IMG/VR virus record: IMGVR_UViG_3300021185_003853
Location: 50,313-114,312 of that record
Source of the DNA: a virus
Strand: one strand, 5' to 3'
DNA: 64,000 nucleotides
In this document: piece after piece, positions 22,319 through 62,033 of the stretch
Position numbering within the stretch: position 1 is the first letter of the stretch
Layout: the number at the start of each line of letters is the position of its first letter
The notes under the pieces: generated by a model
The model's input: only the letters and a program-made list of their open reading frames with translations
Told to the model about the DNA's origin: nothing
Database searches by the model: none
Position numbers and translations under genes: made by a program

Positions 22319-25300
22319 ATGTCTAGTTTAACGAATATTAATAATAACACAAGGGTAGTCAATGTAGGTAGAACAACCCCAGTTGCTCCAGGTCAACAAC
22401 CTGCATCAAAATCAATTCCTGTTGTTCTGGCTACTGATCAAACCGCTATTCCTGTTGTTGAGCAGAATAAAGTTCAATCAGAAGTTTCATTATCTTTGTT
22501 GGGTATTCCTCGATCAGAAGTTGCCTTAGGTATTTTTGCAGACGTTAATACTTACGATGTAAACCCATCAGAATGGTCATCGAGTCCTCAATACTACATT
22601 TCGGGTGATATTGGCGGTCATGGTATTAAACATTTGCCGACTGAAGCGGGTGCGCTTGTTGAAGCACCTCGTGATGAAAGTGCTGTACTGACTTCAAAGC
22701 GTTTCTTCAGATATCAACCAGGTCGTGTATCTGCGGCAACATTCGGCATCAAGTCATCTATTTCAACTGCTGATTACGCAAGAAATCCTGCTATTCGCAA
22801 ATATGGCATCTTTGATAACTTTGACGGATATTATTGGGAAACAAAACAGTCAGGTAAAGGTGATAACTTTAATGTTGTGCGTAGAACACAATCTTTAATG
22901 CACTTTCCACCTTCGCCGTTTGGTTTAACTAATGAGGTTTTACGTAAACCCAACCCTGCTGCAGACGATGAACCTATACCGTACAATCAAACAGATGATT
23001 ATCGCATCATCGGTAAGGAAGGAAAAGAATTAAAAACAGATGTACTTGAGCGTGATAGACAAGTATTAAGTGATAATATCCTTAGTATCGCTAAAAACGC
23101 ATTCAATAATCTATTAACTGCATCTGGTGGCACCAACGACTTCGCTGATTTTTATAATAACACTAATGGTAATGGTAATAATAGTGCCAACGAAGGCCTT
23201 GCCACTCCTTATGACAGATACGAATTTAAACAAAAGTGTCATCGTGACGTTCAATTTGCTCTTAAGATGATGTTGATGGATCTTGAATGGGGCGGTGATG
23301 CACATACAAGAATCAATACAAAAAATTATCAAACAGGACTTTTCAACTCGTATTTTCCAAATACCGCCACCGGCACTCCTGTACCTCCGGGGCAATTTGA
23401 ACTTGATTTGCATACTAATGCAAGAGCGATTGCTGTCGGTTTGCCGGGATTGACTTCACCGGGTGTAAGTAAGATCGGAGCATTATACGACTTTTTAGTT
23501 AAAGTTTCTGGAACAAACAATAAAGGATTCTTTAACAGAATAGTTGCTGGCGTATCGGCAACCAATGCGTATCCGCCAATCACAGGCACCAATGCTTCAT
23601 TAACAACGCTAAGCTATGGGTCAAAGAGTAAAGTTGATACGCTCATTGATACAAGAAAGCATTATTGGTCGTATTTTGTATCGTCATTTGTATTTGTGAA
23701 TAATGATCCCGATAACACTGCCACTAAACAAACATACAAATTTAATGCATTTGCAAATTATCTTCCTGAAGGTTACAATGCTTCGTTGATAGGTAAAGAA
23801 TTAAGTGGGTCAAATTATCCTTATGCATTGAACGAGTCAATAGACGGTGTTCCGCTTGCTGACGCTGCTGACGTTCTTGCTGTAAATGAATTTTACAGAA
23901 ACATAAAATATAAATGTGCTCGAGATCTCGAATACATTGTCAACGGGTATAAGGATGATATTGTTGGCGGCGGTAATGCTCAGACCCTTTACAACGCATC
24001 AATGTATTATAAAGCTGCGGGGTTATCAATCTTTACACAGGAAGACAGTGATATTCCTCGTGAAGTTGCGAAACATAATCATCTAAAACAATGGATACAA
24101 TCAGATTTTGAGGATTCAGATATTACAGGATTTGATTTACCTGTCACATCACCAGAAATTGTTAAGTTAAACTCTTTGTATGGCATCATAGATTCCAACT
24201 TCGTTAGAGAAACAAAAGAAGGTGTTGAGTTAGGTAGTCGTGGATTCGCAGGTAACCTGATTGCATTTAGAGACGGATTGTTGATGACACATGCAGCCGT
24301 CAATGACCCTAGCATGCTGAAAGACGCTAAACAAATAAGAACAACTGTTAAAGAACAATTTGATGATAGTCAACCTACATGCTTTAAGTTGGCAACAGGT
24401 AACGTGACTTTCGGGCAAAATGTTAAGGTTCTAACAACAGGAAATGAAACGCAAATTAGTGACGGAAACAACTTCACTTCAGATACAACAGGCAATGTTG
24501 TCGAAACTGTTGTTGCTGAATACGGAGGCATTTATAAGGTCAGTCGTGTTTACGGTCCTACAGGCAGTGAATTTACTCTACAGGATCAAGACGGAAATGA
24601 TATCTATGCTATGAGAGGTTCTGCTGATAGTGGCACTCTTATCACAGATACAATTGTTATTGAAACTGTTGTTGCGTTTATTGGCGATGTTGTATACAAT
24701 CCTGCTGAATATAGATTGGCAACTGGCATCCGTGCAGAAAGAACGATTCAATCGTATGACGGCACCGATGATACTATTCAATACACAGAAAATACAGACC
24801 CATTCCCGAAAGGTATGCAATGGCCGTATCGATATTCATCATCTGCGCAATTAGGTGATGCGACTGCTAAGTTTATTGGGCACATCGATACCTCTTTGAG
24901 TCCTAATGATGCTACTGAAATAGGTACAATTCGTCAACAATATGATGAAATTAATTTTACACCTGAATATATTAACTGGATTAAGAATAATGTTAAACCA
25001 GAATATTGGGGTGTTTACGAATATCGTGTGCCACGGTCAAGATTCAGTCATGACAAATTAGACGGCAAAACGTCTAAGAGAGTTTACAGCGATTTAGCAA
25101 CAGGTAATACTGGTATTGTTCGTCCGGGCATGGAAGTGCTAGACGAAGACGGCATCTGGACAGATGCTGTATCAGAATATGATTTTGACTTCACTAAAGT
25201 AACGATGCTTAAAATTGAGTTCTCGTGGTATGGTGCGGTAGGTGCATTGTTCCTTGCTTATGTTCCAATCGGTAACGGCGAAGCACGATGGGTAAGAGTA

Positions 25301-26593
25301 CATCACCTAAGAGCATCGAATCAGTTGAAGATCGCATCTCTTGGTAACGCAACACTACCAATCACATACAATGTATATGGCGGAGGATCGCCAGCAGCAT
25401 TTGGTGACGGAGAGGTTGCAACGCATACTTACGGAAGTTCACAGAGCCACCATATTGTAAAATACGGTGCTTCATACTACATCGATGGTGGTGACCGTGG
25501 CACTGTTCGTCTGTACAGCCATAATAATAATAGCCCCGTTGCTGCATATGGCAAGAAATGGGAAATGGGACAAGCAATCACCAGCGGCGTTCTTAATTTG
25601 AATGGGCAAACTCAAACATCGGGTGGCGAAGCATTGCCAATGCTAGCTGGCGGCAATAATGATTTGTCGTTACAATACTTTATGGGTGCAGAGTTAAAGA
25701 CTAACAGTGCTCTTGATGCAGGCATTAAAGTTGTTTGGGTCGATACTGCTACTGATAGATTGTATTTCTCAAGAAATCCTATAGGAACTGGTGTTACATT
25801 GATTCCTGATCGTGGTGAACTTGTTTACGGATTAGAGACAAAAGATTTCATTCTAAGCACTGTTGAAGGAAACCCTGTACGTAACAGAGTACAAGTGTAC
25901 CCAACAAAGTTATCAAGTGCAAATCTTAACTCTGGTCCTGTTCGATTAACTATGAAAAGAACTCCGATATTCCAGACCCTTACAACTATTGATTCAAGTT
26001 CAGCGCTCGCAATAGGATCAGATCCTTATATTGTAAGTGCTTCTAATGACCCATTGAACGTAGCAGAAACGAATACATATTTACAAAACGGCGAATCAAT
26101 TTACGGATGGTTCCAGGGAGTTATCGGCGCAATTGACGAAGAAACAATTTTCGGCAGATTGTATAAGAAAACAAATAGTTATTATTTTGAAGTTTTGCAA
26201 TCATTTGGTGATACAATCACGCTCAATGCTGATGGCAAATTTCTTCCTGATGTGAGGTATGTGAGAAACCCCTCAGGTGAAATTACCGGCCTTGTTGCCG
26301 ACACAGTAACAAAAACAGAAGTTCCTTTGCAGGATACATTGACATCAATTAAAGTGTTTGATAATCCTGTTACACCCATTCCGGGTACAGGTGCCAATGT
26401 CGCTACGCTATACTTAGCACAAAATGGAACAGAGCAGTTAGATCTCGATACGTATTTTGATTATAATAAAGAATATCTATCCTACCCACTAACAGATGAA
26501 GCGGAAACATTGTATTTTGTTGTTGATAAAGATACAGCAGCAGATGCTACCCCGAATGAAATAGCAATAGGATTGACATGGGAAGAACAATAG
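22319..26593 (+). CDS. Large virion structural protein with an insertion carrying two KCxRD helical repeats
   Basis: 1424 aa; shares FRYQPGRVS, KIExSWYGA, RWVRxH and YYIDGGD with the next gene; ends WEEQ. Confidence 0.75.
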   Translation: MSSLTNINNNTRVVNVGRTTPVAPGQQPASKSIPVVLATDQTAIPVVEQNKVQSEVSLSLLGIPRSEVALGIFADVNTYDVNPSEWSSSPQYYISGDIGGHGIKHLPTEAGALVEAPRDESAVLTSKRFFRYQPGRVSAATFGIKSSISTADYARNPAIRKYGIFDNFDGYYWETKQSGKGDNFNVVRRTQSLMHFPPSPFGLTNEVLRKPNPAADDEPIPYNQTDDYRIIGKEGKELKTDVLERDRQVLSDNILSIAKNAFNNLLTASGGTNDFADFYNNTNGNGNNSANEGLATPYDRYEFKQKCHRDVQFALKMMLMDLEWGGDAHTRINTKNYQTGLFNSYFPNTATGTPVPPGQFELDLHTNARAIAVGLPGLTSPGVSKIGALYDFLVKVSGTNNKGFFNRIVAGVSATNAYPPITGTNASLTTLSYGSKSKVDTLIDTRKHYWSYFVSSFVFVNNDPDNTATKQTYKFNAFANYLPEGYNASLIGKELSGSNYPYALNESIDGVPLADAADVLAVNEFYRNIKYKCARDLEYIVNGYKDDIVGGGNAQTLYNASMYYKAAGLSIFTQEDSDIPREVAKHNHLKQWIQSDFEDSDITGFDLPVTSPEIVKLNSLYGIIDSNFVRETKEGVELGSRGFAGNLIAFRDGLLMTHAAVNDPSMLKDAKQIRTTVKEQFDDSQPTCFKLATGNVTFGQNVKVLTTGNETQISDGNNFTSDTTGNVVETVVAEYGGIYKVSRVYGPTGSEFTLQDQDGNDIYAMRGSADSGTLITDTIVIETVVAFIGDVVYNPAEYRLATGIRAERTIQSYDGTDDTIQYTENTDPFPKGMQWPYRYSSSAQLGDATAKFIGHIDTSLSPNDATEIGTIRQQYDEINFTPEYINWIKNNVKPEYWGVYEYRVPRSRFSHDKLDGKTSKRVYSDLATGNTGIVRPGMEVLDEDGIWTDAVSEYDFDFTKVTMLKIEFSWYGAVGALFLAYVPIGNGEARWVRVHHLRASNQLKIASLGNATLPITYNVYGGGSPAAFGDGEVATHTYGSSQSHHIVKYGASYYIDGGDRGTVRLYSHNNNSPVAAYGKKWEMGQAITSGVLNLNGQTQTSGGEALPMLAGGNNDLSLQYFMGAELKTNSALDAGIKVVWVDTATDRLYFSRNPIGTGVTLIPDRGELVYGLETKDFILSTVEGNPVRNRVQVYPTKLSSANLNSGPVRLTMKRTPIFQTLTTIDSSSALAIGSDPYIVSASNDPLNVAETNTYLQNGESIYGWFQGVIGAIDEETIFGRLYKKTNSYYFEVLQSFGDTITLNADGKFLPDVRYVRNPSGEITGLVADTVTKTEVPLQDTLTSIKVFDNPVTPIPGTGANVATLYLAQNGTEQLDLDTYFDYNKEYLSYPLTDEAETLYFVVDKDTAADATPNEIAIGLTWEEQ

Positions 26594-29500
26594 ATGCCAA
26601 GACAGGTCAAAATTGGATTTGATAAGGTACCATCACCTCCAGTAAAAACGTATCATCAACTTACCGACATTTTCGGTACGCCGCTAGAAGATCTAGCAGG
26701 CAACCCTCTTGTTACAGAAGAAAATTCTGTAATATCTACCTTCGCACAGGCAAACAATTCATTATCGAGTTTTGTTGCTAATAAAGAATCGTCAGAAAGC
26801 ATTCCTATAGCAGAGAAATTTGGCACTGACTCAGAGGTAAGTACTACACTCCTAGGTGTGACTCGTGCCGAAGAACAGTTGAGTTTATTTGCCGATGTAT
26901 CGACATATGGATTAGATGCATCTAATTGGAATTATTATACTGTAGGTCAAGGCAATTATCCTGTGCAATGGTATAGTAGAAAACATCCCGTTTTCGGCAA
27001 ACGAGGTTTTGCGGCATTTAAAGAAGAGACAAATGAGCAGGCATTGTACCTGAAATCTTTTCCTACGCAATTTCGTTATCCTCGTCATCCGAGCAAATCA
27101 ACTGACACCTTCTCTCCGACAAGTGATTTCGGTAAATACATAAGATTTATTGCTTTAGGAAGATGGCTATTTGAAATATGGAAAGATGTAGATCCTGTAT
27201 TTGCTGAAAACAACTTCTTGACAGATTGCTTGACTATTATCAGCTCATCAAAACAGCATATCCCAATAACAAAGCAATCATGGAACATGACTCCTGCGGG
27301 CGGATTTGCGTCTGAAGCACAATTCCATAATATAGTATACACATCAGATTCAAATAATGGCGATGACGATATACAAATTGCGATGGATCAAATTGAAAAA
27401 TGGACTCTGTTCTATTTCAGAATAAGAAATGAAACAGACACATATCCAAAATATGTGATTAATAACGGAGATGGATCAACGACAACATATCCTGTATTCA
27501 ATCTTGAGGTGTTTACAAATAATCCTATCCCAAATGTAGGACAATACTTGTATATTCGTGACTATGTAAGCGCTGAAGTAACACGTCCAGGAGGATCTTC
27601 AATAAACTCTTCAATAGGAGTTTTAGAAAGTCGAAAAACATTTAGGTATCAACCTGGTCGTGTATCAGGATTCACATTCGGATTAAGGTTAAAGAATAAT
27701 CCGGGGTCATCGGCGGACAAAATTGAATGGGGTTGTGCAAACCAGACAGATCAATATATGTTCCAGATTTCAGGTACAAAATTTAATATTGTTCGCAGGT
27801 CAACTATTGCGATTCCTAATGATGTTGTTGAAGAAGAAGGCGGCATGAACCTTGTTCCTGCTTCAGATTTCCAGACGGATGAACCAGAAGTCCCGCCAAG
27901 TCGTGATAACTCAAAACCTATGTACACTCTCACAATTCCTCGTGACAAATGGAACGGAGATAGATTAGACGGAAGTGGTCCCTCAGGGCATATCATTAAT
28001 CCTGAAAATGTTACAATGTACAAAATTGAATATTCATGGTATGGTGCAATTGGCGCAAAATTCTATGCATATGTTCCGATAGGTGGTGATGAATGCAGAT
28101 GGGTACGTCTACACACATTTGTAATCGAAAACAAATTACCTAATCCTGTTTTAGAGAACGCTGATTTTAAATTCAGATATGTGCTTTATAATAACGTAAC
28201 CGAGAATTTAACTGAACCTACGTTCATTTACAAATATGGGTCGTCATATTATATCGATGGAGGTGATGAAGGAAGTATTACTCTAAATTCAGTCACATCA
28301 GGTACAAGAACATTTGTAAACCCTAATAATACTGGCGCAATTATGGCGCTTCACCCCAAAGATTTAATATTTAACTCTTCAACAGATACGATATATGGCG
28401 GAACGGCTAACAATAAAAAAATATATCCGTTGACACTATCTGTATTTTCAAGTGATAATGTGCGTATTGATGTGAGTAAGGTTAAAGTTAGTCCTGATGG
28501 TCAACACGGCACAAAGTCGGTTGATCTTATAGCAGGCACTGCGTTCGAAAAAGATATTAAATTTACGATAACTGATAGAAGCCTTATAAATTTAACTGGT
28601 GATAGCCCGTCTTCATTTGATGTGCTAGACACAAACGCAAAGATTATCGGAGACGGTCTTTATAACATTTATACCGGCACTCTTTTCAACGCATTAAATG
28701 AAGTAAACACGACAAAGGCTGAGATACTGAGAAGAGAACAATATCGATTAGGTGCTGACACAATAGGTGAAGCGGTAAGGCTTGTTGACGACACAAGTAT
28801 TAATATTAATCCCACTGTAGACACAACAGTTTTCAATGCTAAACTTACTTCATATAGGAGTATAGTTGCATCTGACACTCCTATTCGAACTAATAGATTT
28901 AAAATACACTTCTTGAATCCCACAAAACGTGACTCGAGATATTCTTATTTTCATTGGGCTGATTTCGCAATAGGTGTTACTGGTGAAGCGCCGACAACAA
29001 CTGTTGAGAATACTCAAGCCGGACAACAAGGATATCTAAAATTTGGTGCATATGATCGTGTTTATCACGATACTATTCCTGAATCAGATTATGATAATAA
29101 TTATTATTTTGATATTAATAAGCAATTAATGGTTGAATGGACGAATCAACATCATGTTAATTCATTAAGAGATGTTGCTGATCTGCGTGAAGTAGAAGGA
29201 GCCCATGGCACCCGTCTCGAGCAAGATTATCGTATTCGGGGCACTGATCTACCTATGAGCAGAAAATTGTCTACTGGAAGAGTTAGCACAAAAGGTGTGC
29301 TAGGATGTGTTAAAGGTGAAGTGAGGGTTATAGAGTACCCGATATCTTTAATTGATGATCAAAATGTTCCCGTAAATGCTGACTTGAGGGTCGTCTTCAG
29401 TACTGCCGCATTTCCTCCTGTAACACAAAATACACTAGGAATTGCTGAATTAGGATTTAATGAGACAGGGTCGGGATATGTATTCATGACTGCGCCTGCT

Positions 29501-30190
29501 GTGCAGATAATAGACGGCGCACAGGTGTATGTTGCATATATCAAAAAACTAAACGGTGCGGCATCAGTAGCCGATTTTGCATTAACAGGAAGTTCGACAA
29601 CTTATGATCAGTCAACTCATGTCACATCAATTCAAGCAAAAGTTATTACACTAGAAGATGATAATAAAATTTCGAGTTCTGATAACGCAAAAGATTTTGT
29701 AGTACAGGACGTATATAGATTTAATATTCAGCCTTTGTATTTGTTTGTTGCAATGAAGTCAAACGCTCGAATAAATAATATCATCGTTGAAGAAATTACA
29801 TCAACTGAAAGAACGTCACATGTACCTAACTTTATAGGTACTACTAATGATATAGGATTTGATGATACATCGAACATAACAATAGAAAAAGATGTGTTGA
29901 CATCACATACCTTGTCACCTTCAAATTTTGTTCCTAAAGATGGATTATCAGGAATAAAGTTTGATATTAACACAAGCAATCCTGTTGCAGACGAAAAAGA
30001 AAAATTATATTCATTTTATGTGGGGCAAAACGAAGCTGTGAAATTTGGATTACAAGAAATATTTGATATTGATCGTGCTTACTTGACGAGCGGATTATAT
30101 AACAATGAGGCATTATATTTCAATGCGGTTCCCGTAGGCGATAATACGTCTGCTGATGTTCAAATGACATTAACAGTTAAGGAGCAGTAA
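26594..30190 (+). CDS. Large virion structural protein, paralog of 22319-26593
   Basis: FADVSTYG, FRYQPGRVSGFTFG, KIEYSWYGAIGA and YKYGSSYYIDGGD; ends VKEQ. Confidence 0.75.
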   Translation: MPRQVKIGFDKVPSPPVKTYHQLTDIFGTPLEDLAGNPLVTEENSVISTFAQANNSLSSFVANKESSESIPIAEKFGTDSEVSTTLLGVTRAEEQLSLFADVSTYGLDASNWNYYTVGQGNYPVQWYSRKHPVFGKRGFAAFKEETNEQALYLKSFPTQFRYPRHPSKSTDTFSPTSDFGKYIRFIALGRWLFEIWKDVDPVFAENNFLTDCLTIISSSKQHIPITKQSWNMTPAGGFASEAQFHNIVYTSDSNNGDDDIQIAMDQIEKWTLFYFRIRNETDTYPKYVINNGDGSTTTYPVFNLEVFTNNPIPNVGQYLYIRDYVSAEVTRPGGSSINSSIGVLESRKTFRYQPGRVSGFTFGLRLKNNPGSSADKIEWGCANQTDQYMFQISGTKFNIVRRSTIAIPNDVVEEEGGMNLVPASDFQTDEPEVPPSRDNSKPMYTLTIPRDKWNGDRLDGSGPSGHIINPENVTMYKIEYSWYGAIGAKFYAYVPIGGDECRWVRLHTFVIENKLPNPVLENADFKFRYVLYNNVTENLTEPTFIYKYGSSYYIDGGDEGSITLNSVTSGTRTFVNPNNTGAIMALHPKDLIFNSSTDTIYGGTANNKKIYPLTLSVFSSDNVRIDVSKVKVSPDGQHGTKSVDLIAGTAFEKDIKFTITDRSLINLTGDSPSSFDVLDTNAKIIGDGLYNIYTGTLFNALNEVNTTKAEILRREQYRLGADTIGEAVRLVDDTSININPTVDTTVFNAKLTSYRSIVASDTPIRTNRFKIHFLNPTKRDSRYSYFHWADFAIGVTGEAPTTTVENTQAGQQGYLKFGAYDRVYHDTIPESDYDNNYYFDINKQLMVEWTNQHHVNSLRDVADLREVEGAHGTRLEQDYRIRGTDLPMSRKLSTGRVSTKGVLGCVKGEVRVIEYPISLIDDQNVPVNADLRVVFSTAAFPPVTQNTLGIAELGFNETGSGYVFMTAPAVQIIDGAQVYVAYIKKLNGAASVADFALTGSSTTYDQSTHVTSIQAKVITLEDDNKISSSDNAKDFVVQDVYRFNIQPLYLFVAMKSNARINNIIVEEITSTERTSHVPNFIGTTNDIGFDDTSNITIEKDVLTSHTLSPSNFVPKDGLSGIKFDINTSNPVADEKEKLYSFYVGQNEAVKFGLQEIFDIDRAYLTSGLYNNEALYFNAVPVGDNTSADVQMTLTVKEQ

Positions 30191-40876: not shown

Positions 40877-43800
40877 ATGTCAACTATTAAATTAAAAAAT
40901 AGCATTGTTCCAGGCGAACGGCCAGTTGTTGCTCCTTTAGACGATGAAACTAATGAGCTGATTCTCGGAGAAATTGCAATCAATACGCATGACGGTAAAA
41001 TGTTCATGCGTAAAGATCAAGACGGCACTATCTCTTTGCAAGAGGTAGGGCAGCGTGATATTGCTGAAAATGTTTTCTATGTTTCTAAAATAGGTGACGA
41101 TTCGAATGATGGTAAAACTATCGGCACAGCATTTGCATCAATTGAACAAGCGTTATTGAGAGCAACACCTATAACAGTCACATTTGATGTTCGTTCAGGT
41201 GCAACAATTGATATTGATGTTGCAACTAACACTATTCATTTGCCCGGTCATGTTTTTGACGATGGTGATGAAGTCATATATAGAGAAAATCTAGGATCTT
41301 ATTCTTCATTAACAAATGGACAACAATACTTCATAAGAAAGTATCCTAATCCATCAAACCTGGAAATTCTTCGAGAAAAGGTTCAACTGTATACAACTAG
41401 AAATGGCGCAATATCAGGACTATCTGCAGATTTAGTTACACTTGCAGTTTCAGGTTTAGGTAATGCGCATTCCTTAACACGAGACACAAAGCAAACCACA
41501 ATCTTTGTTAAAAGTGGGACGTACACTTTAAATAATGTTGTTCGTGGCACTGCACCAATGGGTGGCATTGTTGTTCCTAAAAATGTTTCAATTGTAGGTG
41601 ATAACTTAAGAACAACAAGAGTCAAAGGGTTACATGCAGGAAACGATCTTTTTTATGTTCAAAATGCGTCTTATATAACAAACCTAACATTTGAAGGTAT
41701 GCAAAGAGATGCCTCGCAACCTCGAGATCCTGCTGCTGTTTCATTCCCACCTATTGCGTTACAAGAAGGCGGTGTTGCTAATCCGATTTCAACAAGTCCT
41801 TATATAGAAAATTGTACAGCGTTTAATACGACTGCAACAGGCATGTTGATTGACGGAAGTTTGACTACAGGATTAAGATCAATGGTATCTGATTCGTTTA
41901 CGCAAATCAATGCTGGCGGTACAGGTGTTCACATCGTTAATCGTGGGTATGCTCAACTTGTCTCCATCTTTACTGTTTCATGTGATCACGCTGTATTATG
42001 TGAATCAGGCGGACAATGCTCATTAACAAACTCAAACGCATCGTTTGGTAATTTTGGATTAAAGGCAACTGGTGCATCTGAGTCATTGTATAGAGGTGTT
42101 ATTAACGCTAACGCAGTTCCGTTTGCCGACTATCTTGAAATAACAACACCAACACCTCCTAAATACGGAGATGCATTCTTGGTCAATGATGTTGATCGAC
42201 AACTGATTTCAAAATGCTCTCGTGACACAGGATTAATTGTAGATGCGGTTGCTCAAGATTTAGTATTGCAAACCAATTTCAAATCTATCTACGCAGGTAT
42301 CGCATATCAACGTAAAAATGCATTAGCAGATGCACAAATGGTTGAAGATACAGCAAACGCATTGCTTGAAACAAAACGCCTTGTAGGATTGTTAGAAAAT
42401 GTCATTCCTGTAAAAACAACAAGTGATATAAGTTTTGATGTCATAACAGACATTATTAAGTTTGGTACGGTTATCGATAATGCGGGTCTAGGTACTGCGA
42501 CAGAACCAGAATCAACATTAGTAAACGGAGCATCCTCAGTCGGAACTGTTCCTGCATTGACATTTGTTGATGTGCTGAATCGAGGTTCTGGTTTTGAAGA
42601 TGCAAAAGACAGATTAAAAACCAACAGATCATTTTTGCAAGAAGAAATAACAGCATACATTGCTGTTAATCATCCAAGTTTGACGTACAACACAAATAAA
42701 TGCAAAAGAGATGTTGGGTATATAATCGATGCACTACAATATGATTTGATGTATGGCGGAAATTCTGCAACAACTACCGCTGCTGAAAGTTATTTTGTGG
42801 GTGCAACATCGCAACTTGGCGCAGGGCAAAAAACAGCAACTGTAGATGCTTATGGTCGATTAGCAGATGTCTGTCAGCAAGTAATTTTAGGGACAACTGT
42901 TACTAAGTCAACAGGCAATAATGATGTTCAAGATATTTCAGGTTCTTCGGGTAGTGCATCAGCAGGCACAGCTGCACACGATTTAGTTGAAATTATCAAA
43001 GGTGTTATTGATGACGGAGACCTTGAAGCGTTACCTACAACGGTTCTTCCTGCATTTCCTACCACAGGAACTAACGCAGACGCAAAAATAGAAATAGATG
43101 GCAACAGACGTGCATTGAGAAATGCGACAACTGATTGGGTTATAATCAATACAGGATCAACTGATGATGGTAGCGGAAACGGTGATGGTAATGTATACTA
43201 CACTGTTGAAGGAATACAATCATCTCTTGACTTCACAGGAACTGATTTCAATGGTAACAATTTACCCGTATTTAATTCAAGTGGCGTACAAACAGGAACT
43301 GACACAATTCAAATAGCGAGTCATGGGTGGAAGCAAGGTCAACCTGTCAAATTCACAAAAGGGTTGACCGCCGGTCCTGGAGGATTGGTTGACGGTACAG
43401 TATATTTCATTAAGTATGTGACTGATGACAGTTTCAAACTTGCTACCGACTCAAATGATATAGATAATAGTATTCAGGTTCTATCGACACAAGGTACAGG
43501 TAATCACACACTGACGCCTAAGTTCTTTTATAACACAACAAAATGTCAAAGAGACGTAGGACTAATCCTTGATGCTGTTAAAGATGATGTATTGTTAGGC
43601 ACAAACTTTAACGCTGTGTATACCGGTATTGCATATCAACGTGCGAGCGCATATACTACAGTTACAAACTCAAATCAAAAGAATCCTACAATCGCTTCAA
43701 TGTTGGATACAAAACGTCTTGTTGGTCAATTGTCTGATATTTCATCGGATCCAGATGTCCTCGCAAGAGCGAATCATGCGTTTGATGAAATTATACACAT

Positions 43801-44815
43801 CTTCGAAGACGGAACTGTAAGTGTTTCAGAACCCGGAGACGGTGTTGCAGATGCATTATTCTTACCTAACACGTTAAATGCAAGTGCTGCTATTGTCACA
43901 TCAAAAGACGAATTGATTGCAAATAGATTAGCGTTACAGGATTTTGTGATAAATGAAGTTACAACAAACCATTCTGGTATCTTAACTAGTCCTAATTACA
44001 ATGAAACAAAGTGTAGGAGAGATGTTGGGTACATAGTTGATGCATTGTGTTATGATTTACTATACAACACAAATTCAGCGACATTGCGAGTCGCAGAAAG
44101 TTATTATATTATTAATGATGCAGGACAAACAGTTGCACAGTTAGGAAATGACCCAGCAACTGTCGATGCAACTGAAGCAGTATACACTGCATTAAAAAAT
44201 GAACTTGCAAACGTGATAACTGATTCAGGAGCAACAGCAACTGCTCAGGCGCTGATGGATCAAATTATTGGGTACATAGATTCTTCTGCATTTGAATTAG
44301 ATGAACTAACTGAATTATCGACAACAGGTGTTGTTGTTAAATTCATCGCAGGTCAGACGGCGATAACAGATAACAGATCACAAATTCAAGCAACATCAGG
44401 ACAAGGAATCGATGTATATCGTGTTACGCCACTTGAAGATGTGCGTGATGCATTTGTTTCAGGCCATGGCGTAAACTTCAGAAAACGAAGTTTGATCGCC
44501 GCTAGTTCGATGACATTCGAGTATGTCGGAACAGGCATTGAGATACAAGGTCTAACAGACGCAGGTGCAAATACGGATGATTTATATAACAGACCTCGAA
44601 CAAATGACTTCCCGAAAACGGAAAATGAAGTTATATTTGACGAGGACACAAACTTAGGTGCTGTTTATTTCACATCCACAGATCATAAAGGTGATTTTAG
44701 AATCGGATCTGAAATGCGCATAAATAGAACTGCGGGTAGAATCGAAGGAAATACTTTCGACAGATCATTATTCTCAGTTATGACACCATACATATTAGCA
44801 ATCGAAGGCAATTAA
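40877..44815 (+). CDS. Tailspike/fibre with pectin-lyase-like beta-helix, two HG modules and four KCxRD phycobiliprotein-like repeats
   Basis: VFYVSK.GDDSNDG....AFASI; IFVKSGTY; SIVGDNLR; SPYIENCT; FTQINAGG; GYAQLVSIFT; C-terminal VYFTSTDHKGDFRIG. Confidence 0.8.
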   Translation: MSTIKLKNSIVPGERPVVAPLDDETNELILGEIAINTHDGKMFMRKDQDGTISLQEVGQRDIAENVFYVSKIGDDSNDGKTIGTAFASIEQALLRATPITVTFDVRSGATIDIDVATNTIHLPGHVFDDGDEVIYRENLGSYSSLTNGQQYFIRKYPNPSNLEILREKVQLYTTRNGAISGLSADLVTLAVSGLGNAHSLTRDTKQTTIFVKSGTYTLNNVVRGTAPMGGIVVPKNVSIVGDNLRTTRVKGLHAGNDLFYVQNASYITNLTFEGMQRDASQPRDPAAVSFPPIALQEGGVANPISTSPYIENCTAFNTTATGMLIDGSLTTGLRSMVSDSFTQINAGGTGVHIVNRGYAQLVSIFTVSCDHAVLCESGGQCSLTNSNASFGNFGLKATGASESLYRGVINANAVPFADYLEITTPTPPKYGDAFLVNDVDRQLISKCSRDTGLIVDAVAQDLVLQTNFKSIYAGIAYQRKNALADAQMVEDTANALLETKRLVGLLENVIPVKTTSDISFDVITDIIKFGTVIDNAGLGTATEPESTLVNGASSVGTVPALTFVDVLNRGSGFEDAKDRLKTNRSFLQEEITAYIAVNHPSLTYNTNKCKRDVGYIIDALQYDLMYGGNSATTTAAESYFVGATSQLGAGQKTATVDAYGRLADVCQQVILGTTVTKSTGNNDVQDISGSSGSASAGTAAHDLVEIIKGVIDDGDLEALPTTVLPAFPTTGTNADAKIEIDGNRRALRNATTDWVIINTGSTDDGSGNGDGNVYYTVEGIQSSLDFTGTDFNGNNLPVFNSSGVQTGTDTIQIASHGWKQGQPVKFTKGLTAGPGGLVDGTVYFIKYVTDDSFKLATDSNDIDNSIQVLSTQGTGNHTLTPKFFYNTTKCQRDVGLILDAVKDDVLLGTNFNAVYTGIAYQRASAYTTVTNSNQKNPTIASMLDTKRLVGQLSDISSDPDVLARANHAFDEIIHIFEDGTVSVSEPGDGVADALFLPNTLNASAAIVTSKDELIANRLALQDFVINEVTTNHSGILTSPNYNETKCRRDVGYIVDALCYDLLYNTNSATLRVAESYYIINDAGQTVAQLGNDPATVDATEAVYTALKNELANVITDSGATATAQALMDQIIGYIDSSAFELDELTELSTTGVVVKFIAGQTAITDNRSQIQATSGQGIDVYRVTPLEDVRDAFVSGHGVNFRKRSLIAASSMTFEYVGTGIEIQGLTDAGANTDDLYNRPRTNDFPKTENEVIFDEDTNLGAVYFTSTDHKGDFRIGSEMRINRTAGRIEGNTFDRSLFSVMTPYILAIEGN

Positions 44816-48135: not shown

Positions 48136-51100
48136 GTGCCTGCTCAATATAATTCACGTAAAATACCTCATCTAGAAAATATTTCAGTTTGGTATGATGT
48201 TTCGAACCCAAAATGTTTTAACATAACCGAAGCGATATACGGCGGCAATCAACCATTGCCGTATACTACCGAACTTCAAGCATCTCAACATTTTGAGAAG
48301 TATGTAGGCACATCAACTAACTATGACTTTTCACATTTAACACTTTCTACTAACGGGCCATATACCGATGCCGGTACAGGTAATACCCTACATATCAAGT
48401 TTAATGGACCTTCACGCCCATATTTAGGTTTGCGAGATTTATCGGGCAACAACAGGTCAGCAACCCTTTTTACAAATCCGTTAACCGCTATCAGTTCCTC
48501 AAGTTTTTCGGGGTATGATGAATCAACAAACAAAAGTCGCACAGTTATTTTACCTTTAAAAGGCAAGTGGTATTTCGAACCTTGGGATCTAAAACATAAA
48601 GAATGGCACGCTGCTGAGATTGGACATCTCATTGAAAATGAAGAACCTGATAGAGAACATAATAATTCTGACACAGACCACCTTAAATTTCACATGGATA
48701 ATGCTCCAGCTTTTGCAGAGTTAGAAGAGATTGGTGTTCCGGCCGGGGTAGGCGGCAACACAAGACATCATGATGAATATTCATCTGATACTATGTATGG
48801 TTCGCCGTATCAAAAAAAATCTACATCGAGTAGCGGCGGCACCACAATAGACTTGTATTCAGCAAGACAGCAATATTGGTTAAGTAACTGGGAAGGGTTC
48901 AAAAACAAATACGGTTTGGTTGGTGGTCGTCCCGCTGGTGCTTTTTATGCAGCTATTAAATTCGGATATGTGACAAATTCAAATGCGGATACAGACGAAA
49001 CCCGACATAAAAGAGTTAATGGGCATAATAGTTGGAGGCTTGTAATAGACGGAATGCAGGTTCGAAGCAGGTCTTTAAAGGATCAATCTGACACTGGGTG
49101 GGTTCAGGGACAATTAAAACCAGGAGATGTTATAGATTGTCAATATATTTATCAAGATCACTTTAAAGCTGACCAATATGATTTTGAATATAGAGCATTG
49201 GGAATGTGGGAAATTGGTCCTCCAGTTCTTGTTGATTTTGATCAAAGTCAAACAAACAATACTGACGGATTCTTGAGTAAAGGAACAGCATACCATGCAA
49301 TCAGGCCATGGAGGAGTAGCCCTAATGATTTCGGCCAGTTTCCTGATCCTAAATATACTCCCGGACAATTTCATCATCCTGACCCAAGACTCATCTTGAT
49401 GCATGAAAATAGTGTAAAGATTGAAAATTTAACATGTGAAAATGCATATACATCGCTCACACAATGGGATAGTGTAAAGCCTGCCGGACAAGGGACACCA
49501 GTAAACGGATATCTGTATGCGAATGGAGATTCTGATGTCGCAGTAAATAGTTTTGTGTGCGCTACAGGAATGCCATATGAGGATATTGATTTAAGAGCTG
49601 ATGTTAGTAACTCTACGTCTAGTAACAGTAGATTTTACAATGACCCTTATGGTTACAAATACGATTTCGAAAGAACATTATTAGTAAATAATACTACATT
49701 TCAAAATATAGTTGATCTTGATGATGACTCTGATTACGTTTACCACGTTTTTCTGTATACAGATGAAGGCGTTCTCGCATTATATGAGATAATGAGCTAT
49801 AGGTACCCATTAGACAACTCGGGTTCGAGTGGGATCACAAACCACCTGGTGCGAGGAGTCAGTTATCATGATGGCGGAAGTGTATATAGAGTGAATACAA
49901 GGCAGTATGAAAATAAAAGCTTATTAAAAGCCGGCGTAACTGGGTACACGATGATAATTGTTCGTGAAGATGAGGATGGTAGTTATCTTGAAGCTGGTGA
50001 CAACTATAATGCGTTTCCTCCTGTATATTATCCCGAAAAAGATTTACCTGGGTTCATTCAGTTAAATGCGGGATGTCACGCAGCTATGGGTTTAACTAAT
50101 CCAGATGATCCGTCAACTCCCCCATTGTGGGATGACCCAAAACATCCGTTCGTAGGAAAGGCACTATATGATCCTGAATCAGGACCGGCAGGCGATTTTG
50201 CAAGAGATTTTGACGAACTGTCAGAATTTTCTATATTCACCTGGGTGAGAAAATCTACTTTACAAAAAAGGGCATGGGAAGGCAAGGATGGCGGCAGTAA
50301 TTTTACTGCTAGTGACGGGGTTCGTTACAGTTATTATTCCCCGATAGTTAGTGCAGGGATACATCACTTCGAATTTATATTTAATAATTATGGTCAACTA
50401 CAGTTTCATATGTCACAAGCATCAAACCGAAGAGGGTCTTGGGTAGACACTACGGGCGATTATCCTGATCTGAACGTCTTAAGAACAACTAAAAGAGTTA
50501 TGTGGGGATCTCCGGAATGGGTTTTAGTGGGTATGACTTATAGCGCTAGCACTAATAAACTTAAGTTATTTGTGAACGGAAAAGTAGAAGCAGAGTTGAC
50601 AGGACAAACTTTATTCCCTATAGGCGGAACCGCTCTTTCAGGCGATTATGAAGGATATAGTACAACGGTGGATGATTGGGGAAATAGTGCTCATCCTACA
50701 AGAATAATGTTAGGTACTAGTTCGGTTAATAGTGAATATCGTACTGCCACCGGGTTTACAGTTGGCAGCAATTCTCTTACAAAACCACACTTATTTAAAG
50801 AACCTGATTCAACAAATAATTTAAAACCATACTCTCAATCAAAAGTTGCAGATATGCATATGAGTCAATTTTATATGTGGCACGATACTGTATTGTCTGA
50901 ACAAGATGCTGATCAATTATTTGTATCAACAAAAGGAAGATTCGGATTAACTGATTTATCTGTCCCATCTGTTTTGCCTGGCGCTAGTGCAATTAATTCT
51001 AATGTTCCTGGCGACCAAACTGGCGGTGGCGATACTGGCGGTGGCGATACAGGCGGCGGTGATACCACCACTACGCAACCCATTTATGAAACTATTACAA

Positions 51101-57803: not shown

Positions 57804-58208
57804 ATGAAGGAAATTAGTGACTCATTAGGAATGGTTCCTTTGCCCGAAAATGAGACTACAACATTAACTAGAGTTCCTGCGAGTGATTCTAAAGTTGAAA
57901 ATGCTGATAAGGATTATGAATACGCAAGAGAAAACTTTTATAATGTAATTGAAAAGGGCACATATGCGCTTGAAGAGATGTTAGAAGTTGCGAAGGCATC
58001 AGAACATCCTCGTGCATATGAAGTCGTATCTACGATTATGAAAACTCTCGTTGATGCTAACAAAGATCTTGTCACAATGTCTGATAAGAAAGTTAAAGAT
58101 GCACCACAAGAAGAGCAAACTCAAGGCACAGTCAACAACAACTTGTTCGTAGGTTCAACAAACGAACTACAGAAAGTGTTGAAGGATATTCGTAAAGATG
58201 AATCTTGA
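57804..58208 (+). CDS. gp16: Terminase small subunit gp16
   Basis: DYEYAREN, SEHPRAYEV and NNLFVGSTNELQK. Confidence 0.95.
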   Translation: MKEISDSLGMVPLPENETTTLTRVPASDSKVENADKDYEYARENFYNVIEKGTYALEEMLEVAKASEHPRAYEVVSTIMKTLVDANKDLVTMSDKKVKDAPQEEQTQGTVNNNLFVGSTNELQKVLKDIRKDES

Positions 58209-59811
58209 GCGAGGATATAACGGCAACGTAAACCTGAAACGAAAAGGGACTTCGATTGAGTTCTCTCAGGATATGGTTGCTGAATTTATCAAGTGCGCTC
58301 AGAATCCAACATACTTCGCAGAAAAGTATATTCAAATCGTTCATGTAGATAGAGGATTAATACCGATATCTTTGTACGATTATCAGAAAGAGATTGTCGA
58401 AAAGATAACAAACAATCGTAGAGTAACAGTTGTAACATCAAGACAGGCGGGTAAAACAACAACTGCTGTTGCTGTGATTCTGCACTATGTTCTATTTAAT
58501 GAGCATAAGACTTGTGCTTTACTTGCTAACAAAGGCGATGCGGCTCGTGAAATACTTGATCGAATTAAGATTGCATACGAAGCATTGCCTAAGTGGTTAC
58601 AGCAAGGTGTGATCGAATGGAACAAGGGTTCTGTTGAATTTGAGAACGGATGTAAAATCATCGCAGGTGCAACATCGTCAAGTGCGATTCGTGGTAAGTC
58701 GATTTCGTTCTTGTATATTGATGAAACAGCATTCGTAGAGAACTGGGATGAGTTCTTTGCATCGGTATTTCCAACGATTTCATCTGGTGAAACAACAAAG
58801 ATGTTATACACATCAACACCAAATGGGTTGAATCACTTTTACAAAACATGTGAAGGTGCAAAAGAAAACATCAACGGATTTGAGTATGTTGAAGTGCCCT
58901 GGCAACGTGTTCCTGGTCGTGATGACAAATGGAAAGTAGAAACACTCGCCGCAATGGATAACGATACGCAAAAGTTTACGCAAGAATTTGAATGCGGATT
59001 CTTAGGATCTTCAGGCACATTGATCGAAGGAAGTAAACTCAAATCAATGGTTATACGTAATCCTATACATGAAACAAAAACTCTTAAAATGTATGAATCG
59101 CCTGAAGAAGAAAGGGTGTATGTTTTAGTTGCAGACGTATCAAGAGGCAAGGGACTAGATTACTCAGCATTTACCGTTGTAGACGTCACGACAACCCCGT
59201 ATAAGCAAGTTTGCACGTTCAGGGATAACATGACAACCCCTATGGACTATGCTGAAATTATATATAGAGTAATAAGCAATTATAATAATTGTTATGTTCT
59301 GATTGAAATTAACGATATTGGCGAACAAGTATCTGATATTCTCATCAACGAATTTGAAGTCGATACGTTATTGTTCACAGAACATGCAGGAAGGTCGGGA
59401 AAACGAGTAACAACAGGGTTTTCAGGCAAAGGAGCAGATAAAGGCATACGTACAACCAAAACTGTTAAATCGATAGGTTGTAATACGCTAAAATTATTAG
59501 TTGAACAGGATCAACTTATAATAACAGATTTTGATACGATTAACGAACTTTCTACTTTTTCAAGAAGGAAGAATTCTTATGAAGCGGAACCAGGAGCACA
59601 CGATGATACAGTAATGTGTTTAGTGCTCTTCGCATGGTTGTCAACTCAAGCATATTTTAAAGAATTGACTGATATTAATACTATGCAACTATTAAAGGAA
59701 GGTAAGGATGAAGCAATGATGGAAAGCATGCTTCCAATGGGATTCAACACATTAAATGACGCTGAAGAATCGTTTGTCGATAACTCAGGAGATCGTTGGT
59801 TTACTTTCTAA
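58198..59811 (+). CDS. gp17: Terminase large subunit gp17
   Basis: Walker A SRQAGKTT, Walker B LYIDETAF, STPNG, ADVSRGKGLDYS and HDDTVM. Confidence 0.97.
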   Translation: MNLERGYNGNVNLKRKGTSIEFSQDMVAEFIKCAQNPTYFAEKYIQIVHVDRGLIPISLYDYQKEIVEKITNNRRVTVVTSRQAGKTTTAVAVILHYVLFNEHKTCALLANKGDAAREILDRIKIAYEALPKWLQQGVIEWNKGSVEFENGCKIIAGATSSSAIRGKSISFLYIDETAFVENWDEFFASVFPTISSGETTKMLYTSTPNGLNHFYKTCEGAKENINGFEYVEVPWQRVPGRDDKWKVETLAAMDNDTQKFTQEFECGFLGSSGTLIEGSKLKSMVIRNPIHETKTLKMYESPEEERVYVLVADVSRGKGLDYSAFTVVDVTTTPYKQVCTFRDNMTTPMDYAEIIYRVISNYNNCYVLIEINDIGEQVSDILINEFEVDTLLFTEHAGRSGKRVTTGFSGKGADKGIRTTKTVKSIGCNTLKLLVEQDQLIITDFDTINELSTFSRRKNSYEAEPGAHDDTVMCLVLFAWLSTQAYFKELTDINTMQLLKEGKDEAMMESMLPMGFNTLNDAEESFVDNSGDRWFTF

Positions 59812-59891: not shown

Positions 59892-62033
59892 ATGGCTTTT
59901 CAACTAAGTCCAGGCATAAATGTCAGCGAAATTGATTTAACAAATGCTGTGCCTGCTGTTGGTACTAGCGAGGGTGCTTTTGTAGGTACTTTTCGTTGGG
60001 GTCCAACGAATGAAAGAGTGCTGATTAGTTCAGAATCACAACTAGCAGCAAGGTTTGGTAAACCATACATCAGTGCAGATGGCACATGGAGTAACCAACA
60101 ATCATTCTTTTCAGCGGCCAACTTTTTATCATATAGCAGTGCACTGTATGTGACACGAACCGATGATGCTACTGCCGCAAAAGGCGGTGCTACAATATTT
60201 AGCGCAAAATATAAAGGGTTATTAGGTAATTCACTAAAGGTGATTGCTTGTGATGACGGCGTTAATAGTTTTTTTGATGCAAATGGCGCACCTAGCTCTA
60301 CAATTGCATTGACACAAGGATCATTCAGCGCAACAGTTACAGGTGCAACCCCTAGTGTGGGTGTTGCAACAACTTTTGATGCTTCAAGCGCTAGTGTTGT
60401 TCGTACTGACGATGCTGCAGATGGCGATACCCCAGGTAACAGTTTCACTATCGCAGCTCATGGGTTTACTACTGGTCAACCCCTAGTATACAGTAACGGC
60501 AGTGCAGTTGATAGTGCAGACACTATTGGCGGATTAAGCACTGGGCAGACGTACTATGCTGTTGTGACAGGAACTGATTACATCCAACTTTCAAATACTG
60601 AAGCAAATGCGCTTGCTGACACACCTCAAGTGCTTGACCTATTCGGTACCGGTGCCGCCGGCTCGTCATTTACAACTATTGCATCAACTTCAACAGTAAA
60701 TAATTATTTTGAAGCTGGCGGATATATTGTTATTGATGATGATGAATATGAAATCGCATCAGTGGGTGTTCATGAATCTAACGCAAACACAATTTCATTA
60801 AACCTACAAAACAAATATTGGGGCCCAACCCAAACTGGCGTATCATATGGATACCAGTGGGAAGGATCAGGTGTATTTGACAATAGTCCTACAACAGGTC
60901 GTGTTCATGTTGCAGTAATTGATGTAACCGGTACGATTTCAGGAGTTGCAGGCACTATTTTAGAAACCTATGATAGTGTTTCAATTGTCGATACAAGTGC
61001 AAAACAATTCGATGGAACAAGTGCATATCTTCGTGATCTATTAGAATTGAATTCAGATTATATTGAATTCCAGGCTGATGTTGAAGATGCTGCTGCAGAC
61101 ACTGCAATCTTAGGCACATTCACTGAAGTGTTTACCGGAGGCAATGACGGGCAATCTGAAACAGCAGGCGATTTCACAACAGGAAAGGTGATGGCGGGTT
61201 GGGATATATACAAGAATCCCGAAGACGTTGACATTTCATTAGTTATTACAGGTATGGCAAATGCTGATATTCAAAATTATGTAATGGACAATATTGCAGA
61301 ATCACGAAAAGATTGTGTCGCATTCTTATCTCCACGCAAAGAAGATGATACCGCTCAAAAGATTGTTGCATACTCTGTGCCATTATCAGGAAGTTCATAT
61401 TCCGTTATTGATAGTGGGTATAAATATCAGTATGACAAATACAATGACAAATATGTTTGGATTCCATTAAATGGTGATGTTGCCGGGTTGTGTGCAAGAA
61501 CTGACGAAGAAAGAGATCCGTGGTTCTCACCTGCTGGTTACAACAGAGGTCAAATTAAGAATGTTGTTAAACTTAATTTGAATCCGAATAAAACGCAACG
61601 TGACTTATTGTACAAAAACAATATCAACCCAGTAATTATTGAACCTGGTTCAGGCGCAATCTTATTTGGTGACAAAACAATGCAAAGAAATCCAAGCGCA
61701 TTTGATAGAATCAATGTACGTAGATTGTTCATTGTACTAGAAAAAGCAATTGCATTAGCATCTAAGAGTACATTGTTTGAGTTCAATGATGAATTTACAC
61801 GAGGCACTTTCAGAAACATGATCGAGCCGTTCTTACGTGATGTGCAAGGTAGACGAGGCATTTATGACTTTAAAGTGGTTTGTGACGAAACAAACAATAC
61901 TGGCGAAGTCATTGATACGAACAGATTTATCGGCGACATTTACATTAAACCTGCTCGTTCTATTAACTTCATTCAGTTGAACTTTGTTGCAGTACGAACT
62001 GGTGTAGAATTTAACGAAATTATAGGTCAATAA
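59892..62033 (+). CDS. gp18: Tail sheath protein gp18 with inserted accessory domains
   Basis: MAFQLSPGINVSEIDLT, WFSPAGYNRG, FDRINVRRLF and KPARSINFIQLNF. Confidence 0.97.
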   Translation: MAFQLSPGINVSEIDLTNAVPAVGTSEGAFVGTFRWGPTNERVLISSESQLAARFGKPYISADGTWSNQQSFFSAANFLSYSSALYVTRTDDATAAKGGATIFSAKYKGLLGNSLKVIACDDGVNSFFDANGAPSSTIALTQGSFSATVTGATPSVGVATTFDASSASVVRTDDAADGDTPGNSFTIAAHGFTTGQPLVYSNGSAVDSADTIGGLSTGQTYYAVVTGTDYIQLSNTEANALADTPQVLDLFGTGAAGSSFTTIASTSTVNNYFEAGGYIVIDDDEYEIASVGVHESNANTISLNLQNKYWGPTQTGVSYGYQWEGSGVFDNSPTTGRVHVAVIDVTGTISGVAGTILETYDSVSIVDTSAKQFDGTSAYLRDLLELNSDYIEFQADVEDAAADTAILGTFTEVFTGGNDGQSETAGDFTTGKVMAGWDIYKNPEDVDISLVITGMANADIQNYVMDNIAESRKDCVAFLSPRKEDDTAQKIVAYSVPLSGSSYSVIDSGYKYQYDKYNDKYVWIPLNGDVAGLCARTDEERDPWFSPAGYNRGQIKNVVKLNLNPNKTQRDLLYKNNINPVIIEPGSGAILFGDKTMQRNPSAFDRINVRRLFIVLEKAIALASKSTLFEFNDEFTRGTFRNMIEPFLRDVQGRRGIYDFKVVCDETNNTGEVIDTNRFIGDIYIKPARSINFIQLNFVAVRTGVEFNEIIGQ

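Follow-up and report, generated by a model that had tools for sequence, protein, structure and literature searches.

The stretch considered here is a 64,000-nucleotide window (hereafter, the window) of the IMG/VR virus record IMGVR_UViG_3300021185_003853, covering positions 50,313 to 114,312 of that record, and the element of interest is a long segment inserted into one of the virion structural proteins of this marine phage, a tail or baseplate protein encoded by open reading frame (ORF) 22319-26593. Our analysis supports the view that this insert contains a tandem pair of phycobiliprotein-type globin domains in which the bilin attachment triad is intact, and that the pair is part of a large virus-borne branch of the phycobiliprotein family. 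The two domains, D1 and D2, are named after the first and second KCxRD-bearing repeats of the protein; they, their host ORF, its adjacent paralog and the fibre protein discussed below are all encoded on the plus strand, and coordinates are those of the window.

Two CxRD globin domains in a virion structural protein

ORF 22319-26593 encodes 1424 amino acids (aa), falls into PHROG family 1645 (phrog_1645, 'virion structural protein') and is an ortholog of gp120 of S-TIM5, the TIM5-like cyanophages being its nearest cultured relatives. Its translation holds KCHRDVQFALKMMLMDLEWGGD with Cys307 (codon 23237) and KCARDLEYIVNGYKDDIVGGGN with Cys533 (codon 23915), exactly as quoted in a first-pass annotation made from the sequence alone. 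The protein has three cysteines in all, two of them within KCxRD motifs. A six-frame scan of the whole 114-kb record recovered exactly six such motifs, two in ORF 22319-26593 and four in ORF 40877-44815, where 0.022 would be expected from composition and the maximum across 2000 shuffles was two; the observation is confirmed and exceeds chance by far. ORF 40877-44815 encodes an unrelated, tail-fibre-like protein of 1312 aa with four further domains of this kind (Cys codons 42215, 42701, 43544 and 44012). The same domain thus occurs in two otherwise unrelated virion scaffolds, a phrog_1645 protein and a beta-helix tail-fibre-like protein, as the first-pass annotation had proposed, and the Cys is kept as K-C-x-R-D in all six copies.

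The segment that carries D1 and D2 (22886-25021; aa 190-901, from FNVVRR to YRVPRSRF) contains, in this order, both globin domains and a beta-rich part. D1 (23033-23536, aa 239-406) is a phycobiliprotein-like globin domain with RQVLSDNILSIAKNAF as helix B and KCHRD on helix E; this motif, K306-C307-H308-R309-D310 (23234-23248), is the counterpart of the phycobiliprotein bilin attachment site K83-C84-x-R86-D87. D2 (23630-24199, aa 438-627) is a second globin domain of the same family and bears the second attachment-site motif, K532-C533-A534-R535-D536 (23912-23926). The remainder (24236-24988, aa ~640-890) is not globin, and its start is common to S-TIM5 gp120.

The segment has no counterpart in the neighbouring ORF 26594-30190 (1198 aa), a paralog from the same PHROG family. 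Both proteins have N-terminal blocks, the C-terminus and a strongly conserved central block in common (35% identity and E 3e-23 for the central block). BLASTP pairs two stretches, in that aa 123-190 of the first protein fall on 343-403 of its neighbour and aa 889-1067 fall on 437-566, and it follows that the interval from FNVVRR to YRVPRSRF amounts to ~712 aa in ORF 22319-26593, as opposed to ~43 aa from FNIVRR to TIPRDKW in the paralog. The paralog, in turn, has a ~225-aa insertion of its own (aa 119-342) that separates the N-terminal blocks, as opposed to ~26 aa at this place in ORF 22319-26593, meaning that each of the two bears a distinct lineage-specific module.

While the insertion of roughly 700 aa claimed by the first-pass annotation therefore holds against the paralog, its extent is narrower against the closer S-TIM5 gp120 (1058 aa). 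BLASTP matches gp120 to aa 14-232 and 887-1424 and pairs its residues 206-256 with aa 618-674, such that the extra piece relative to gp120 is only ~aa 233-617, i.e., precisely both globin domains. The beta-rich remainder of the segment is common to gp120 at least in part. The match lists of fold searches with the segment were taken up entirely by the globin domains, and the beta-rich part (aa ~640-890) drew no listing. No CxRD motif is present in S-TIM5 gp120.

A search of 5.8 billion proteins for orthologs of the insert-bearing protein returned 36 that are full-length and carry the insert, down to 30% identity across it. K306, C307, R309 and D310, as well as K532, C533, R535 and D536, are invariant in all 36, and the third Cys of the protein varies, with several orthologs having only the two motif cysteines in ~1400 residues. 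The insert is encoded on at least 146 IMG/VR contigs. In the fibre protein, the motif is likewise invariant at all four sites in 14/14 orthologs. Profile-profile comparison connects the repeats significantly both within and between the two proteins: D1 aligns with D2 at 97.7% (E 2.4e-12) and with the fourth repeat of the fibre protein at 97.1% (E 5.9e-11, 124 columns), and D2 aligns with the second fibre repeat at 96.5% (E 1e-9).

A hidden Markov model (HMM) built from the six repeats expanded the family considerably: from 1.84 billion proteins, it retrieved 1,176 representatives (50% clusters) with E<=0.001, of which 782 had E<=1e-10. Proteins with CxRD globin domains are typically giant and contain 2 to 34 copies each. 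The Cys is retained in 1,032 of 1,068 domain copies from 156 relatives (96.6%), nearly always as [K/T/S]-C-x-R-D, and 52% of all cysteines in 140 representative proteins lie in CxRD. By tblastn over 50,697 sequenced phages, the repeats were found in 203 records, all of which except one ('Marine') are named Synechococcus phage, Prochlorococcus phage or cyanophage; the matches sit in tail-fibre, short-tail-fibre or structural proteins, with which structure matches in BFVD agree. The largest arrays seen, in proteins P0158-P0160 (predicted 4,800-6,400 aa), comprise 30-34 tandem copies and by far exceed those of the window.

Kinship with phycobiliproteins

We hold it to be nearly certain that these domains are homologous to phycobiliproteins. 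The first-pass annotation had pointed to a likeness of the motif to the phycobiliprotein chromophore site, and this likeness reflects real homology rather than a chance motif, since the fold predicted by AlphaFold2 (AF2), the alignment of the six-repeat HMM on Cys84 and relatives that pass Pfam PF00502 (Phycobilisome protein) all point the same way.

An AF2 model of aa 191-900 based on the ortholog alignment (pLDDT 79.8, pTM 0.80) and one of D2 alone (aa 425-645; pLDDT 88.4, pTM 0.85) predict the phycobiliprotein/globin fold for both domains. Aligned with VIA, D1 matches allophycocyanin (APC), phycocyanin, phycoerythrin and the APC-derived smURFP with Z 11.5-12.9 and a root-mean-square deviation (rmsd) of 2.6-2.8 Å over 124-130 residues; the superposition covers model residues 49-216 (protein aa 239-406), and 231 chains reach Z>=8. 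In a separate, unbiased scan of 48,161 PDB representatives, ranks 1-7 were all phycobiliproteins or ApcE (Z 10.7-12.4), followed by an RsbR-type globin (matching D2) and then by photocobilins and sensor globins. For D2, VIA returned three matches tied at Z 10.4, namely the ApcE bilin-binding domain 4xxi (rmsd 2.7 Å, 114 residues), far-red APC and the sensor globin pXO2-61. With Foldseek, neither model had a match at E<=0.001; phycobiliproteins did come up with a high 'prob' (0.93-0.98 for the model of aa 191-900) but weak E-values, and the case consequently rests on the VIA alignments together with sequence profiles. The ESM Atlas yielded no usable match for aa 235-690.

Two further details concern the N-terminus of D1 and an insertion in D2. 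Low-rmsd superpositions of D1 start at phycobiliprotein chain residue ~32, and those taking in residues 13-15 have an rmsd of ~7 Å, which suggests that the N-terminal X-Y helix hairpin responsible for alpha-beta heterodimer pairing is absent from the modelled D1. In D2, a beta-hairpin of ~60 aa (23690-23890, aa ~458-515) is inserted after the first helix and before helix E, at the position where ApcE bears its PB-loop.

At the sequence level, when the PDB sequences were searched in full with a profile made from the 36 orthologs, 22 matches came up at E<=10, all of them phycocyanin or phycoerythrin alpha chains, in alignments that include helix B as well as helix E and place the KCxRD of the family on the KCARD that bears Cys84 in C-phycocyanin alpha. 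The six-repeat HMM behaved alike: 35 of its 36 matches among PDB sequences were phycobiliproteins (best E 0.0014), the Cys again fell on Cys84 and helix B was aligned, too. When compared by hhalign with 40 CpcA proteins from cyanobacterial genomes, D1 scored 91.6%, fibre repeat 2 scored 87.8% (over 61 columns) and D2 scored 82%. Only profiles reach the phycobiliproteins from within the window, as Pfam found nothing on the three window proteins and phmmer with the whole proteins found nothing among PDB sequences. Among relatives, however, the Pfam profile (gathering score 22.2 bits; 155 positions) does respond. Many of 320 homologs of the repeat region of the fibre protein have a precomputed PF00502 match, six fibre-protein homologs (E<=1e-100 to the fibre protein) scored 25.5-33.8 bits on rescanning and matched up to 119 of the 155 positions, and ORFs of phage S-PM2 scored 30-31 bits.

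That a short helical motif could have arisen by convergence on an unrelated helical bundle would be in line with the strongest profile-profile alignments to CpcA, which span just 27-61 columns around the motif. Yet, the structural superposition spans the whole globin core (124-130 residues at 2.7 Å), PF00502 matches in relatives extend over up to 107-119 profile positions and exceed the curated threshold, and helix B aligns as well as helix E, all of which makes convergence an extremely improbable explanation.

The domains might also bind something other than bilin, such as heme in the manner of sensor globins, or their Cys might serve another chemistry, for instance as a redox switch or in disulfides that link domains in pairs. 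For D2, the structural matches to sensor globins (pXO2-61, RsbR, globin-coupled sensors) and to phycobiliproteins are of about equal quality, and the copy numbers in the window, 2 and 4, are even. The sequence signal, on the other hand, is specific to phycobiliprotein alpha chains and not heme globins, and CxRD is the bilin motif common to phycobiliproteins and to BBAG-1 and BBAG-3, two of the bilin biosynthesis-associated globins (BBAGs; PMC10151467). Odd copy numbers in 28 of the 156 relatives argue against obligate pairing of cysteines, and no proximal-His pattern was seen among the invariant residues, although no search was aimed at a proximal His. We therefore judge a different ligand or Cys chemistry to be improbable.

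Bilin supply, attachment and light

The fold, the homology, the conservation of the motif and the genomic co-occurrence with bilin synthesis are what the analysis shows. That the domain Cys attaches a bilin covalently is an inference that we regard as probable; a light-dependent role of the domains in adsorption is a far more tentative one. For the combined proposal, i.e., that biliprotein-type domains sit in chromophorylated form on the baseplate or fibres of the particle, our confidence is modest, if still favourable.

The K-C-x-R-D of each domain corresponds to the site at which phycobiliproteins form a thioether to the bilin, held by Arg and Asp. If the phage domains work likewise, they would be chromophorylated during assembly, and the released particle would display biliprotein domains on its baseplate or fibres. 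The pigment would be phycoerythrobilin, produced by the phage heme oxygenase and a PcyX-like reductase, and the domains, like ApcE and the BBAG globins, would probably attach it autocatalytically. Such an arrangement would most attractively serve as a light signal or a light gate for adsorption.

A source of bilin is at hand, as the record has genes for a heme oxygenase and for a bilin reductase of the ferredoxin-dependent type (FDBR) ~37 kb upstream of ORF 22319-26593. They form a translationally coupled trio with a cell-wall hydrolase (Hydrolase_2) at G000:C1:34312-36133, ~14-16 kb before the start of the window, in which both genes follow the hydrolase and the stop and start codons of heme oxygenase and FDBR overlap. 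The FDBR is PcyA/PcyX-like, and its closest match in an isolate, at 47% identity, is the hemO-adjacent FDBR of the pelagiphage Mosig, which has been treated as representative of the marine hemO-pcyA/X cassette (PMC11480375).

This linkage recurs on related contigs. An FDBR is found on 3 of 49 insert-bearing contigs, all three of which extend at least 33 kb upstream of the ortholog; one further contig, G040, reaches 36.6 kb upstream without an FDBR, and its closest relative, G037, has the gene ~49 kb upstream. Conversely, when PcyX contigs with a length of 28 kb or more are considered, 12 of 27 have the domains, and with a minimum of 50 kb the share is 10 of 12 (the latter contigs being 14-73% complete). 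Both FDBR and CxRD domains are lacking in S-TIM5 and S-TIM54, whose genomes are complete. A strict one-to-one pairing of FDBR genes with CxRD domains is nevertheless to be rejected, S-PM2, P-SSM2 and Mosig being exceptions to it.

With regard to light, adsorption of S-PM2, P-HM1 and P-HM2 does not take place in the dark, independent of host photosynthesis, whereas P-SSM2 and P-SSP7 adsorb in the dark, and dim red light is without effect on adsorption (PMC6628666). The distribution of the domains follows this division: the light-dependent phages have nine (S-PM2), three (P-HM1) and three copies (P-HM2), and the two dark-adsorbing ones have none. More generally, the domain was not detected in P-SSM2, P-SSP7, S-TIM5, S-TIM54 or Mosig. 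The copies are located at 55.6-57.9 kb and 166.2-170.2 kb of the S-PM2 genome (NC_006820.1) and at 54.7-57.4 kb and 83.0-83.9 kb of the P-HM2 genome (NC_015284.1), where they fall in giant fibre ORFs of 3,340-4,458 aa. It is conceivable, though rather doubtful at present, that phage particles bear their own biliprotein photoreceptors, with domain arrays carrying phage- or host-made bilin and gating adsorption by light.

Several observations weigh against chromophorylated, light-responsive domains on the particle. PF00502 stays below significance on the window's own two domain proteins and has no match elsewhere in the genome, which is why the sequence link rests on profiles and relatives, and a Z of 10-13 for an all-helical domain is, according to the tool's own warning, a range in which a merely common arrangement is possible, so that the case was not rested on structure alone. 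The isolates break the co-occurrence with bilin synthesis in both directions, as S-PM2 combines its nine copies with the lack of an FDBR and P-SSM2 and the pelagiphage Mosig have an FDBR and no detectable domain copy. The 114-kb record, at 67% completeness, has no lyase of the CpeT (PF06206) or CpeS (PF09367) family, E/F-type lyases not having been searched; without an S- or T-type lyase in the record, attachment would have to be autocatalytic or host-assisted. The correlation with adsorption comprises five phages, two of which are near-identical, leaving approximately four independent points, and is thus taken as a lead only. Finally, most phycobiliproteins harvest light instead of acting as photoswitches, and those BBAG holoproteins that have been tested showed themselves photoinert (PMC10151467), meaning that a mechanism of sensing is not obvious.

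Some of these points favour an alternative in which the domains are phycobiliprotein-derived apo-proteins that act in the baseplate or fibre as rigid helical spacers or receptor-binding modules and keep KCxRD for folding or for a contact with something other than bilin. Phage fibres often take up and multiply foreign structural or adhesive domains, which would fit the 2-34 copies per protein seen here, no lyase gene was found, some isolates such as S-PM2 have the domains without a bilin reductase, and the Cys is lost in ~3% of copies. However, no positions of the domain are more conserved than the buried free Cys and the bilin-holding Arg and Asp, whereas identity elsewhere falls to 25-30%, and a purely structural role would not be expected to pick out exactly the chromophore triad. 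The strong co-occurrence with PcyX on uncultured contigs likewise speaks against apo-domains, which we consider a rather unlikely state of these proteins.

Known systems, significance and host

The closest known counterparts are the phycobiliprotein alpha subunits (CpcA, ApcA and CpeA; PF00502). The phage domains share with them the globin-type core fold, the K-C-x-R-D on helix E at Cys84/Arg86/Asp87, the Gly-Gly turn after helix E and a helix B that aligns. Unlike the alpha subunits, which are free proteins of 160 aa, the phage domains are arranged in tandem inside virion proteins of 1,300-6,000 aa; the X-Y hairpin appears to be unmatched in them, there is no sign of disc or rod assembly, and the window proteins remain under the Pfam threshold.

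The bilin-binding domain of ApcE is comparable in architecture, being a phycobiliprotein domain that forms part of a large multidomain protein and, like D2, has a loop inserted between helices B and E; in structure, it ranks with the best matches (4xxi, Z 10.4-11.3). No lyase is needed for ApcE to attach its bilin, and its attachment Cys sits elsewhere in the domain than at the position-84 site. In contrast to the phage proteins, ApcE anchors a cellular antenna and has just one domain of this kind.

BBAG globins provide a precedent of a different kind. These phycobiliprotein paralogs of non-photosynthetic bacteria, of which BBAG-1 and BBAG-3 have CxRD, self-assemble with bilins (Rockwell et al. 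2023, PMC10151467), and their genes are genomically tied to heme oxygenase and FDBR in heterotrophs (PMC10151467). They resemble the phage domains in being phycobiliprotein relatives outside phycobilisomes, some with CxRD. The phage, too, has heme oxygenase and FDBR in its genome, but BBAGs are small, cytoplasmic and encoded next to the biosynthesis genes, whereas the phage domains are viral and reside in structural proteins encoded 37-57 kb from hemO-pcyX.

On the side of the pigment, the phage genes hemO-pcyX, ho1-pebS and cpeT supply similar phages with bilin and, where these are T4-like cyanophages, also with a homolog of T-type lyases, yet they have so far been read as supporting the host antenna. 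The purpose of hemO-pcyX in non-cyanobacterial phages has been stated to be open, with a BBAG-like acceptor named as one possibility (PMC11480375), and no phage-encoded bilin acceptor protein was found in the literature that could be searched. Cyanobacteriochrome-like GAF folds in cyanophages (PMC12481020) are a comparable computational report of a phage-encoded bilin-photoreceptor-like fold; GAF is not a globin, though, the protein concerned is a different one, and the report covers neither phycobiliproteins nor globins and mentions tails once in passing. We found no description of phycobiliprotein-like domains in phage virions or tail fibres, in a literature search that was incomplete, so an earlier description is possible.

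The domains are therefore of interest in several respects. They are a candidate for the basis of light-dependent cyanophage adsorption, being present in the three light-dependent phages checked and missing from the two dark-adsorbing ones, and an acceptor that is encoded on these same contigs and has kept its attachment site offers a concrete hypothesis for the purpose of heme oxygenase, PcyX/PebS and cpeT in phages. Were the photoreceptor reading true, it would explain both the light-dependent adsorption of cyanophages such as S-PM2 and P-HM2 and the presence of bilin-synthesis genes (hemO-pcyX, ho1-pebS) and cpeT in phages, including apparently non-cyanobacterial ones. Irrespective of bilin, a large virus-borne branch of the phycobiliprotein fold, with ~1,200 representative proteins and up to 34 copies per chain, bears on the evolution of this pigment-protein family. 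If the particles do bear bilins, this would be a property new among bacterial viruses, and fluorescent tags that are compact and assemble by themselves might be obtained from them.

As for the host, the large terminase (58198-59811; 59% identity) and the tail sheath (59892-62033) are closest to those of the Sinorhizobium phages phiN3/phiM12 and Caulobacter phage Cr30, and the fibre and baseplate proteins are closest to those of TIM5-like and T4-like cyanophages. Given these differing affinities, the genome looks mosaic. S-TIM5 has psbA as well as psbD, but neither gene is present in the record, and the same holds for 31 related contigs and for 10 PcyX contigs, among them one of 262 kb. With a host other than a cyanobacterium, no acceptor for phage-made bilin would be obvious except the domains of the phage itself. 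One contig flagged as 'provirus' (G073) has phage-like genes at either end and gives no clue to a host. Two other contigs that bear the insert or the domains, G036 (IMGVR_UViG_3300018426_001942; 152 kb, 43% complete) and G074 (262 kb, 73% complete), apparently stem from far larger genomes, estimated at ~350 kb, indicating that the module is not restricted to the ~170-kb TIM5-like phages.

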